NCBI GenBank assembly: GCA_963738155.1
Contig: CAVTVG010000007.1
Location: 249,834-313,833, forward strand
Length of the DNA stretch: 64,000 bases
Direction of reading: 5' to 3'
Source of the DNA: an uncultured Alphaproteobacteria bacterium
GTDB taxonomy: Bacteria; Pseudomonadota; Alphaproteobacteria; Rhizobiales; Xanthobacteraceae
Made by a program: the position numbers and the translations under genes. Of the stretch, positions 1,102 through 48,341 are shown piece after piece. The first letter of the stretch is position 1; each line of letters starts with the position of its first letter. The notes below the pieces were generated by a model. That model ran no database searches. It saw nothing but the letters and a program-made list of their open reading frames with translations, and was not told where the DNA came from.

Positions 1102-1196
1102 GGCTCACGGCTCCTGCAGTTTTGGAGCCGGGCCATGAACCCTTGCCCGGCCTTCCGCGTCAAACGCATTAACTCGTCATTTCACACGCAACGACC

Positions 1197-45304: not shown

Positions 45305-46276
45305 ATGAGCGCGTGGTTCAAACTGTCGGCGTTGACGGTTGTCGCGGCACAGATCGTCGCCGGTTTCGGCGTCAGCGCCTTTGCCAGCCCACCCGGGGGA
45401 ACGTCGCTTTGCAGCCGGCCGCCTCCTTACGTCGGCGACATCTCGACCATCACCGAGTCCACGCCTTTTGCCGGCTCCAAACTGTTTCGCCCCGATGATG
45501 GACGCCGCCATCTCTCCCTCATTCTGTTGCATGGGAGCGAAGGCGGTTCGGACCCGGAATTCGCCTGGTATGCCCGCCTCTGGTCCAAACTCGGCTACGC
45601 GGTGCTGGCTTATTGCTATTTCGATTGCGACCGCAAAGGCGATGCGCTTCCCGCCAGCTTGAAGAATGTCGAGACCTCCAAAGTATTGGACGCCGTCGGC
45701 TGGCTGAGGCGGCAACCCTTCGCCGACGGAAAGGTTGCGGTATTCGGCTTTTCCATGGGCGCCGAGATGGCGTTGATCGTCGGCAGCCTGGAGAGCGGTC
45801 AACACGCGCCGGACGCACTGATTGCCCACTCGCCCGGTCAATTCTTCGATCCGCCTTTCAATCCCAATTGGGTGAAGCCGAGCTGCTGGACGTGCATCGG
45901 TCAATGCAAGACGAAAGCTCCCCGCGACCCCGACCCAAACTTCAAGTGGCATCCGTACTGCGGTGCCGACACGCCGGATACGCTGGATGATGCGACGAGC
46001 GGTTGGCTGACTTACGGCAAGAGCGTGCCTTCGGGAACGCGAATTCCGATCGAAAAATTCGCTGGCCCCATCTTGCTCATTCAAGGCGAGAACGACACCG
46101 CCTGGCACGGCCGCGGTCAAACCCATGACGTCGAGGAGTCGCTGGAAAAATCCGGAAAATTTCCGACGACCTACTATTTTCCCGGCGCCGGGCATGACTT
46201 TGCGGGGACTGCGGACATGGGCTGCGAGATGCGGCTGGTTCAGGCCTATTTGCAAAAACTCGATCGGGCTCCGTGA
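45305..46276 (+). CDS. Secreted alpha/beta hydrolase (BAAT C-terminal / dienelactone hydrolase-like) with Cys-rich insert
   Basis: Signal peptide; HGSEGG, GFSMG, GEND, GAGH. Confidence 0.82.
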   Translation: MSAWFKLSALTVVAAQIVAGFGVSAFASPPGGTSLCSRPPPYVGDISTITESTPFAGSKLFRPDDGRRHLSLILLHGSEGGSDPEFAWYARLWSKLGYAVLAYCYFDCDRKGDALPASLKNVETSKVLDAVGWLRRQPFADGKVAVFGFSMGAEMALIVGSLESGQHAPDALIAHSPGQFFDPPFNPNWVKPSCWTCIGQCKTKAPRDPDPNFKWHPYCGADTPDTLDDATSGWLTYGKSVPSGTRIPIEKFAGPILLIQGENDTAWHGRGQTHDVEESLEKSGKFPTTYYFPGAGHDFAGTADMGCEMRLVQAYLQKLDRAP

Positions 46277-46402
46277 CATCATTGACGCGCCGGCCGCGGG
46301 TGGAGTCTTGCGATGGTCAGGGAATAAGGAACGTTTTATTGCGGACATGGTGATGCGATCCCGCGGCGCATCTGCGCCCGAGTGCTGAGAGCTAACTGAT
46401 CC

Positions 46403-46860
46403 CTCATTGATCATGAGGGCGCAGGGAATGCCGGGCGCTGGCCGCACCCGCAGGCCTCGTGGGCTGAAAAGGAAAGGTGCCCACAAGTCAGTACAGGTAG
46501 GCCGAAACGGTCCGGCACTCCCTGCGCAATGGCTTTACGGCTGCTCCGCGCTCTCCCCGGTGTATCGGGCTTTCTAGTCACCGTCGCGAATGGATCATCT
46601 CCATTCACTTGACCCCAGCATCGAGGGGACAGGACCACACGGCTTGACCGTACGCGACGCGCCGCACGTCTTGCGGCGCGACCGCGTCCATCGCAGCCCG
46701 CACCACGAATCGTGACGATCGCGAAACGCCCCTCATGCGGGCGGGATAACTTCGTTAAATCATAATTTCTGTCATTCGGAAAGAGGATTATTTTTGCGAT
46801 CCGGGCTTGACATGCGTTTCTGGAAACCCGCAGGTGTTTTGCCTGTCGTGTCGTGGAGGC
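46403..46860. repeat. ~450-bp multi-stem intergenic element (abundant Bradyrhizobiaceae-type long repeat)
   Basis: GCGCAGGGAATGCCGG (46419-34) pairs with CCGGCACTCCCTGCGC (46512-27); ends ATGAGGGCG / CGCCCCTCAT pair. I recall the sequence as multicopy in this genus; only one copy is in the window. Confidence 0.75.
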
Positions 46861-46999
46861 AACACTCGGCTGGATCCGGTCCGCCCGATCACATTTGCCG
46901 GAGGCAATGTCCGCTTTTGCCCATCGTCGGTGTTTTTCCTCAGGTCGGCTTTGTGCCCACAAGCAGACTCGTTGGCTGTGCAGCCCACTCGGCGACTCA

Positions 47000-47180
47000 T
47001 CAGCTCGCAGGATCGGCCAAAGGGTTGCTGTTTTTGTTTCCCCATCCAACCAGGCTCGAGCATCAGCCAAGCTATTTCACGCAGTGATCACGCGCCCGTG
47101 ACGCTTTCTTCGGATCACTGTCGGCGGCAGCCAGAACGACACAATTCGCCGCGTTCTTCCTCAGATCATGCTCACACCAG
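47000..47180 (-). pseudogene. Frameshifted remnant of a small rhizobial protein
   Basis: EHDLRKNAANCVVLAAADSDPKK in one frame, SLADARAWLDGE in another; family resemblance from memory. Confidence 0.3.
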
Positions 47181-47339
47181 CCGTCTTCGCGGAATAAACC
47201 GGTCGTTCAAACGCTGCATGCACAAAGCGGTTCCTGAGTTCGGCAGCCGACACAAGCGCGGTCGACCCTTTAAACACGTCCAAGATGGAACCAGCGGCCA
47301 CTGGAGGCTTTAACGGATCATCAGAGATCGTGAACGCCT

Positions 47340-48341
47340 ATGTTTTCCGCGACCTCCGTCATCGCACTCGCCTTTGCGCTCAGCCTGCTGGTGGCTATGA
47401 CCACTTTCGGTGTTGCGCAGATCGAGGCTGCGCATCCGCCAGCCGGTCAGTTTATAGAGATAGGAGACGTCAGGCTGCACGTCGCCGAGCTCGGTCTTGC
47501 GCGCGGAAGCCAAGGCGCTGAACCCGCCGTCGTTTTGATCCACGGCGCAAGCGGAAATATGGAAGACATGCGGCTCGCGCTCGGCGCAAAACTCGTGAAG
47601 TCGCATCGCGTCATACTGATCGATCGCCCGGGCCACGGTTGGAGCTCGCGGCCGGCGGGTGACGCTTATGCTTCGCCCGCGCATCAGGCGAGATTGGTCG
47701 CAGAGGCTCTTCGGCGGCTGGGGGTCAGGCGCGCAATCCTGGTGGGCCACTCTTGGGGTGGTGCGTTAGCGACCGCCTATGCCATTGCGTTCCCCGACCG
47801 CACGGCCGGTCTCGTTCTGCTGTCCGCGGTTACCCACCCCTGGGCCGCCGATCCCGGGTGGTACAACAACCTCGCCTCGTTGCGCGGCATTGGCCCGGTC
47901 TTTCTGCAGACGCTAGTTTATCCATTGGGGTTGCTCCTCATTGACGGCGTGTCACGCAGCGTGTTCGAACCCCAGATCGAGCCCCCCGACTACGTGCGGA
48001 GGGCCGCCATTCGGCTTGTGCTGCGTCCGAAGACATTCTTTGCCAACGCGCGCGACCTGGCCCTGCTCACCGATTTCATCACCGCCCAGGTGCCGAGCTA
48101 CGTCAAGTTGCGTTCGCCGACCATCATCATCACCGGCGACTGCGATCCCCTGGTGTCGCCAAAAATAAATGCATGCGCACTCGCTGCAACATTACCGCGT
48201 GCCAAGCTGGTCATTCTCAAAGGCGTTGGGCACATGCCGCACCATGCGGCTCCTGAAGCCGTGGTAGCAGCTATAGATGAACTCGCGCCGGGCATATCGA
48301 GCGAATGCGGCTCGCACTCCGAGCAACCTGTAGCGAGTTAG
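47340..48341 (+). CDS. Alpha/beta hydrolase with N-terminal anchor
   Basis: HGASG, DRPGHG, GHSWGG, VGHMPHH. Confidence 0.9.
   Translation: MFSATSVIALAFALSLLVAMTTFGVAQIEAAHPPAGQFIEIGDVRLHVAELGLARGSQGAEPAVVLIHGASGNMEDMRLALGAKLVKSHRVILIDRPGHGWSSRPAGDAYASPAHQARLVAEALRRLGVRRAILVGHSWGGALATAYAIAFPDRTAGLVLLSAVTHPWAADPGWYNNLASLRGIGPVFLQTLVYPLGLLLIDGVSRSVFEPQIEPPDYVRRAAIRLVLRPKTFFANARDLALLTDFITAQVPSYVKLRSPTIIITGDCDPLVSPKINACALAATLPRAKLVILKGVGHMPHHAAPEAVVAAIDELAPGISSECGSHSEQPVAS

Follow-up and report, generated by a model that had tools for sequence, protein, structure and literature searches.

Intergenic repeats of the ERIC, BOX and Correia/NEMIS types are present in high copy, are modular or mosaic and non-coding, have no known dedicated enzyme and differ in copy number among related species; they are imperfect palindromes or hairpins of 100-200 bp which fold when transcribed, usually together with their neighbours. 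HEARO (later recognised as the IscB omega RNA), GOLLD, ROOL, OLE and raiA are RNAs of more than 300 nt with many covariation-supported helices, invariant unpaired positions and no ORF, and HEARO in addition occurs in multiple copies and is linked to mobile DNA. To our knowledge, few large bacterial RNAs of more than 300 nt combine many covarying helices with invariant unpaired blocks, and those large structured bacterial RNAs that we know to have been studied so far are ribozymes, nucleoprotein scaffolds or guide RNAs of mobile elements. At the other end of the size range, Br-REP1 and Br-REP2 are intergenic palindromes of 20-40 nt that have been seen in transcripts of Bradyrhizobium (Hahn et al. 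2016, PMC5082802), and REP sequences are described as targets of other IS110-family members in PMC1525189 and in the ISPpu10 preprint.

The element reported here lies at approximately 46350-46870 of the window (the whole stretch of 64,000 nucleotides that was analysed) and shares features with each of these systems. Like ERIC, BOX and Correia/NEMIS repeats it is high-copy, intergenic, mosaic and non-coding and is predicted to fold, but its unit is not palindromic, and it has a 333-nt multi-junction fold, strand-specific wobble pairs and a promoter-like module of its own. Like HEARO, GOLLD, ROOL, OLE and raiA it is large, ORF-less and rich in covarying helices and invariant unpaired positions; unlike them it has no Rfam match and no associated protein gene, is confined to one alphaproteobacterial family, and, at up to ~130 candidate matches in a genome, greatly outnumbers these classes. 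It shares its genus and intergenic location with Br-REP1 and Br-REP2, whose sequences are unlike it (PMC5082802), and six short strings from its core were absent, on both strands, from those supplementary files of PMC5082802 that are in text form. The structured-RNA discovery literature that was searched makes no mention of Bradyrhizobium, and within this incomplete coverage of the literature no description was found, so that the element is apparently undescribed.

With a probability of about 0.55, we regard the family as a dispersed, dispensable family of self-contained structured non-coding RNA genes, the product of which is a folded minus-strand RNA. Each unit would comprise an AT-rich promoter-like module, the 333-nt core and two 3′ hairpins, and the constrained product would be a folded minus-strand RNA of ~330-400 nt, extending from ~46752 to 46415 or 46350. 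Copying would place whole units at new intergenic sites in bursts, different from lineage to lineage, after which they would mostly stay put, with copies kept alike by exchange of cores (gene conversion) and acting as recombination breakpoints and as a landing site for an IS110-family element. A more far-reaching version, in which the family is a 'selfish RNA gene' without a protein and represents a new class of large structured RNA across Bradyrhizobium and related genera with tens to more than 100 self-promoted copies whose fold serves their own propagation or maintenance as a ribozyme or as a guide, template or scaffold, appears unlikely.

A dispersed intergenic unit with constant core borders

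The window copy occupies a 1.06-kb gap bounded by two plus-strand ORFs (45305-46276 and 47340-48341). The original prediction had placed a multi-stem element at 46403-46860; the element is there, and alignment of copies showed that the conserved unit is somewhat wider, at ~46350-46870, with a length of ~0.45-0.5 kb (460-530 bp) and no conservation among copies in the columns beyond ~46350 and ~46870. An outer pair thought to enclose it, GCGGACAT (46341) and ATGTCCGC (46907), is present in the window copy but is not family-wide. The proposed paired ends, ATGAGGGCG (46413-46421) and CGCCCCTCAT (46727-46736), show complementarity interrupted by one bulged base and are conserved as blocks at the core borders; their mutual pairing is not in the RNAalifold consensus, which pairs each block locally.

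Read on the minus strand, the unit consists of up to four parts. The core (46415-46747; 333 nt, RNA read from 46747 to 46415) contains a 5′ domain, in which a helix of 46741-46745 with 46697-46701 encloses GAGGGGCG..CGAUCGUCACG, a multi-branch domain in the centre, which the helix of 46688-46694 with 46526-46532 closes, and a 3′ domain closed by 46421-46431 with 46515-46525; CCGGCAUUCCCUGCGC is an invariant block. Upstream of the core lies an AT-rich module that is conserved among copies (46748-46812, a putative promoter region), preceded by an optional outer module, R (46813-46870), with a TTGCC..GGCAA hairpin and a CGUCGGGCAAAA-type motif. Downstream lies a 3′ tail, or L-module (46350-46414), with two hairpins: a CCCUC-loop-GAGGG hairpin (46402-46406 with 46415-46419; 3′ arm inside the tail) and, after a variable spacer, a bulged GC-rich hairpin (46364-46369 with 46374-46380) followed by GGGAAUGCGG. 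An 8-9-bp GAGGG(G)CG repeat occurs at the core borders, inside the unit. An extra insert of ~32 nt is present in the variable hairpin 46586-46608 (at ~46597) in about one fifth of the copies in the genome from which the window derives (hereafter the source genome).

BLAST and nhmmer searches of the 6.8-Mb source assembly identified ~55 full-length copies and 64 core matches, establishing that the element is multi-copy and not single-copy. Identity to the window copy ranges from 73 to 86%, and mean pairwise core identity is 74%. All of these copies are intergenic, as judged from crude gene calls, with no fixed orientation to their neighbours. The tail module gave 61 matches, 55 of which adjoin a core, the exceptions being five copies split by an insertion sequence (IS) and one solo tail. 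The R module was found by nhmmer at 29 places, 28 of them adjoining a core, and its presence or absence varies between copies that are otherwise 93% identical. The possibility that the outer modules are a pre-existing target invaded by the core was rejected for the source genome, where they are never found without a core save in the IS-split copies and one fragment.

The statement in the original prediction that this sequence is highly repeated in Bradyrhizobium was borne out; 22 of 24 genomes of the genus carry the family. In the other two none was detected, and copy number ranges from none detected up to 130 candidate matches, with 40-70 scored matches in the richest genomes. Among the complete or near-complete genomes, one of 9.1 Mb has 2 matches only, one of 9.2 Mb has at least 40 full cores among 130 candidates, and one of 4.3 Mb has at least 70 matches, most of which cover the equivalent of 46415-46587 alone. 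Core borders do not vary between the genomes that have copies. Diverged matches were found in 12 other genera of the same family, mostly to the RNA 5′ domain (~46654-46749) and in one case nearly full length, while searches of 16 other families of the order, of a plasmid collection and by distant BLAST returned no match. The element accounts for up to ~0.5-1% of some Bradyrhizobium genomes. Two genomes of the genus (G014 and G063) contain dozens of shorter sub-elements consisting of the RNA 3′ domain only (window 46415-46587).

Fold, strand and flanking modules of the core

In order to evaluate the fold, 124 cores from 16 genomes were aligned in RNA sense (alignment A1), giving a consensus of 68 pairs. 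The fraction of paired cells was 96.5%, compared with a mean of 88.9% in shuffled alignments and 40-48% when the partner was slid by 1-3 columns; 32 pairs were changed on both sides (shuffled mean 21.6; slid 13-21), as were 608 cells (shuffled mean 179; slid 74-146), and the covariation score was 0.311 (shuffled mean 0.167; slid at most 0.084). Not one of the observed values was reached in 500 shuffles, shuffle-based covariation statistics being inflated by sequence relatedness and the structure being derived from the same alignment. The 16-bp internal helix that had been predicted at 46419-46434 with 46512-46527 is present and, as helix 14, has the strongest support in the family, with 99.8% of the cells of its 12 pairs paired and compensatory changes at 6 of these pairs. 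The GTGGGC/GCCCAC pairing which it was said to enclose (46459-46464 with 46479-46484) likewise exists and varies with compensation, as does the short hairpin GCGCCGCA/TGCGGCGC (46659-46665 with 46673-46679).

The structured strand is the minus strand, as had been proposed. For the window copy, the minimum free energy z-score is -3.2 for the plus strand and drops to -6.5 for the minus strand, both values being better than shuffles, and the RNAalifold energy of the 55 source-genome copies is -268 kcal/mol for the minus strand versus -233 kcal/mol for the plus strand. Helices predicted without wobble pairs were used for a comparison of non-Watson-Crick cells, which makes the test strand-neutral. 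In plus orientation, A.C cells outnumber G.T cells (215 versus 77), and 55 columns lean to A.C versus 17 to G.T; A.C cells in plus orientation are G-U pairs on the minus strand. Several pair positions pass through A-U, G-U and G-C, for example 46428/46518 (AC in 30 copies, AT in 14, GC in 11). Wobble pairs are also kept across the 16 genomes, with columns 39/56 being GU in 96 of 116 distinct rows, and columns 83/310 and 184/277 conserved as wobbles in 97 and 98 of the 116, respectively. This asymmetry is not strict proof of an RNA, because folded single-stranded DNA also tolerates G.T.

No credible coding sequence was found, in agreement with the original prediction, and a coding or small-ORF reading was rejected: 27 of the 55 cores lack an open frame of at least 100 aa, core indels among the source-genome copies are small (mostly 1-2 nt), and a search across the cores revealed no conserved small ORF. 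Conservation is blocky, with ~131 columns at least 97% conserved interleaved with columns that are less than 60% conserved, and many of the 131 near-invariant columns are unpaired. Loops differ between clades. A conserved, strand-specific fold with compensatory changes, by which structured non-coding RNAs are generally recognised, is thus a property of this family, and the size of ~330 nt given in the original prediction corresponds to the core 46747-46415, the borders of which are the same in every species.

The AT-rich segment at 46745-46812 is real and conserved among copies, and the suggestion that it is a minus-strand promoter was supported in part. On the minus strand it contains a -10-like TATGAT (46764-46759), a weak -35-like TCCTCT (46787-46782) and an A-tract, GCAAAAATA (46798-46790), and its position fits a promoter from which an RNA would start at ~46752; a consensus sigma-70 scan of the window copy called no promoter. 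In the sampled other genomes the upstream motifs follow a common order in RNA sense (CGACGGGCAAATCA, TGTCCAGCCCC, GCAAAAATATTC, TTTTCCGAAA, GCAAATCA), after which comes a TTATAT/TATGAT-like box, separated by 9-13 nt from CCCGC, the first helix of the core; the CGACGGGCAAATCA motif, found upstream in other species, is related to the CGUCGGGCAAAA-type motif of the R module. The best evidence that the AT-rich module is a promoter comes from two copies of other species in which canonical promoters replace it at the same distance from the core, with TTGACA-N17-TATAGC at locus L106 and TTGACG-N17-TTCAAT at L140. Transcription of the minus strand from the AT-rich module is thus suggested by its motifs and by these replacements. 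Downstream of the core, all species have the CCCUC-loop-GAGGG hairpin, a spacer, the bulged GC-rich hairpin and then AAUGCGGA, with no U-tract after the tail hairpins in the window copy or in the sampled genomes; the RNA would end either at the core border or beyond these hairpins. Published small-RNA tables for strain USDA 110 list nothing of the size of the element, and the core was not found among published small RNAs of Bradyrhizobium.

Positional stability, core exchange and rearrangement

Comparison with a sister species (G045), whose flanking genes are 95%, 97% and 82% identical to those of the source genome at codon positions 1, 2 and 3, showed that most copies have stayed in place. 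This genome carries at least 41 copies, and 17-18 of 20 examined are at the same loci as copies in the source genome. Core identity between positional orthologues averages 85% (74-98%), versus 78% in non-orthologous pairs; in only 6 of 17 cases does a copy match its positional orthologue best. Between positional orthologues, identity is 99.6% in columns that are at least 97% conserved in the family, 95.6% in columns that are 90-97% conserved, and 59% in columns that are less than 60% conserved, so that the 131 most conserved columns lie above, and the variable columns below, the 82% of third codon positions. Positional stability together with the near-invariant blocks points to strong constraint at the level of the family.

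Within the source genome, mosaic pairs of copies were identified. The cores of C17:105835 and C16:889265 are 99% identical while their outer modules are ~80% identical, and the window copy shares 96% core identity with C21:962541, with outer modules at ~65%; in these pairs the transitions are sharp and coincide with the core borders. Other pairs are 91-99% identical over the unit with unrelated flanks. Identity that is limited to the unit, taken together with the mosaic cores, suggests that whole units are copied and that cores are exchanged by gene conversion. Conversion tracts that end where similarity ends could account for the mosaic pairs as well as for the excess divergence of the variable columns, and gene conversion can give copies the appearance of purifying selection in place.

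These observations bear on the possibility of a host-beneficial trans-acting RNA, such as a protein-binding scaffold, a sponge or a ribozyme, in which each copy would be under purifying selection and multiplicity would serve dosage or differential regulation. The conservation of position in the sister species is in keeping with such a role, as is the identity of the conserved columns in excess of that of third codon positions, and the unpaired near-invariant columns suggest tertiary or protein contacts. The RNA sense also runs with replication in 52 of the 80 listed copies of two complete genomes (by hand count 27 of 40 in G075 and 25 of 40 in G063), with the position of dnaA, at 1.87 Mb and 8.96 Mb, respectively, taken as a proxy for the origin. 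Against this stand the range of copy number within the genus, with only 2 matches in a complete 9.1-Mb genome, the frequent finding that the closest copy is not the positional orthologue, the decay or IS-splitting of some copies, and the divergence of the loops, which, not being conserved between clades, offer no evident common seed. A host-beneficial RNA is accordingly doubtful. Patchy copy number, decayed and IS-split copies and duplications of the unit alone instead argue for a dispensable selfish or accessory repeat and not an essential host RNA, as in the preferred reading of a dispersed family of RNA genes.

Synteny with the sister species often breaks at the border of an element, and the genes next to elements seem to be reshuffled. 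The left flanking gene of the window copy is accessory, and synteny of this locus with the sister species is lost. An empty-site comparison of 20 loci of the sister species and 10 of the source genome revealed rearranged or imprecise differences only, with no clean pair of filled and empty sites. Several individual loci were also recorded. The genes flanking the window copy (45305-46276 and 47340-48341) lie apart in G045, at loci L031 and L047; the orthologue of the left gene adjoins the flank that borders the C6:284748 copy in the source genome, and that of the right gene (93% identity) is in C2-like surroundings, with a further element copy ~480 bp away. At L142 (G045:C1:81800-84000, ~1120-1190, reverse strand) there is a solo tail module (..CCGCATTCTTCGCGGCGCGATTGCGTTCGGGC..) where the source genome has a full element with REP sequences (C17:440972-441436), the distance between the conserved flanks being 246 nt versus 990 nt, which corresponds to either a deletion or an insertion. 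Where L038 contains an intact element, the source genome (C16:28097-38867) has a 35-nt core-start fragment (C16:38540-38574) and then ~10.4 kb of other DNA.

Insertion of an IS110-family element and relation to mobile systems

A 1.30-kb IS110-family IS, encoding a 319-aa DEDD transposase (Pfam DEDD_Tnp_IS110 and Transposase_20), is present in exactly five copies in the source genome (C16:199940-201239, C16:723444-724743, C6:51878-53177, C7:399527-400826 and C2:169221-170520), with 99.8-100% identity across 1300 nt. All five occupy one and the same point, the core/tail border, of separate and diverged element copies and share one orientation, with the junction ..CCCTC-N7-9-xAG AG | IS | AG GGCGCAGGG and the transposase gene in the RNA-sense direction. 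In the window copy the equivalent point (46411-46418; ..AG AG|GGCGCAGGG) is empty and reads CAUGAGGG. The IS has a non-coding end of its own of ~190 nt, upstream of the transposase gene. Three of the IS-carrying copies have uninterrupted orthologues in the sister species; this, together with the near-identity of the IS copies and the divergence of the element halves, indicates that the IS is a recent invader of existing elements. The repeats targeted by ISPpu9, ISPpu10 and IS621 are comparable, in that an IS110-family IS occupies one exact position, in one orientation, of a repeated intergenic sequence; here AG lies on both sides, and the IS targets a structured element of 0.45 kb at its 3′ core border, whereas the REP target is a 35-bp palindrome. 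The element is thus an IS110-family target and not the bridge RNA of that IS.

Recognition of the core/tail junction by an IS110-family recombinase is one of several observations compatible with an element that acts at the level of DNA, that is, a non-autonomous mobile element or recombination site which folds as single-stranded DNA, in the manner of IS200/IS605 ends, integron attC sites and rolling-circle origins, and has no RNA role. Palindromic CCCTC-N-GAGGG junctions flank the core, hairpins lie near both ends of a unit that has neither terminal inverted repeats nor target duplications, cores are exchanged with sharp borders, synteny breaks and gene shuffling coincide with element borders, and orientation is mildly biased relative to replication. 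Such an element is quite unlikely, since the source genome has no Y1/HUH transposase and no TnpB, the outer modules never form an empty site there, the promoter-like module is held at a fixed distance and is replaceable by canonical promoters, and a 333-nt multi-junction fold of 68 pairs with conserved wobbles far exceeds known single-stranded DNA recombination sites in complexity. Even as untranscribed DNA, the family would stand out as a protein-less repeat of unusual complexity with a puzzling mechanism of copying. If the family supplied the guide or scaffold of an RNA-guided mobile system (compare IS110 bridge RNA, IS1111 seekRNA and the IscB/TnpB omega RNA HEARO), as an ORF-less derivative or with its enzyme in trans, it would resemble HEARO before its function emerged in being large, structured and multi-copy. 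The only detected link to a mobile enzyme is an IS110-family recombinase whose position coincides exactly with the 3′ core border and which lies on the RNA strand. This reading is very improbable given five near-identical IS in diverged, elsewhere uninterrupted element copies, an IS with its own ~190-nt non-coding end, the lack of an adjacent recombinase gene in 50 of 55 copies and the lack of a match to Rfam HEARO.

Membership of described classes was examined through sequence ends, enzymes and covariance models. The sequence is not a classical MITE, the alternative named in the original prediction: pairs that are 91-93% identical with unrelated flanks define the unit ends (left ..CGACnGCATTCCCGCGG, right ..GGCGGCGGGTTTTnG), and these ends do not form inverted repeats; the aligned pairs show no direct repeat on either side of the unit of the kind expected from target-site duplication, and no parent IS was found, the sole IS linked to the family being inserted into the element and having unrelated ends. 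Terminal hairpins, the lack of terminal repeats and the lack of duplications are traits shared with IS200/IS605-like elements. The source genome gave no match to TnpB (PF07282; found in 8 control genomes), to the Y1 transposase/RAYT (PF01797; found in 6 control genomes) or to the reverse transcriptase RVT_1 (PF00078; control genomes responded). An IS200/IS605 derivative (PATE) or TnpB omega RNA was rejected with the first two of these results, as was a REP, BIME or REPIN with the second and with the size of the unit, 460-530 bp and not palindromic. Retrotransposition or RNA-mediated conversion was rejected in the absence of RVT_1 from the source genome, as was a group II intron, for which there was also no Intron_gpII match; ORF-less group II introns are much longer than 333 nt. 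An IS110 bridge RNA or IS1111 seekRNA was rejected, 50 of 55 copies being without a recombinase and the other five representing the recent insertion with its own 190-nt end, and so was the notion that the five IS-bearing copies are full-length masters with the element as a 5′ bridge RNA, because the tail lies beyond the IS, the IS are 99.8-100% identical while the halves are diverged, and the sister species has these copies without interruption. A cmscan of 45800-47800 with E-values up to 5 returned two chance snoRNA matches outside the core only, and no Rfam or IS family matched the element. Of the earlier proposal of a folded RNA element that spreads in trans, the fold and the constraint on the minus strand held; spread in trans fared less well, with reverse transcriptase, TnpB and Y1 transposase all missing and the loci mostly shared with the sister species.

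The share of the genome that the family occupies, its marking of breakpoints and its targeting by an IS110-family element bear on the plasticity of the genomes of an agriculturally important genus. The family also provides a concrete subject for the study of large structured RNA, and its conserved blocks of 30-40 nt could serve as primers for strain typing. REP-type palindromes often abut the end of the tail, as ..GGATTGCTTCGCTTCGCTCGCAATGACGAG and the Br-REP2-like ..GCGCCCCGGAATGACGA (for example at C3:214085, C12:134016 and C2:1083), and Br-REP2-like GCCCCGGAATGA sequences adjoin the tail end of several copies.
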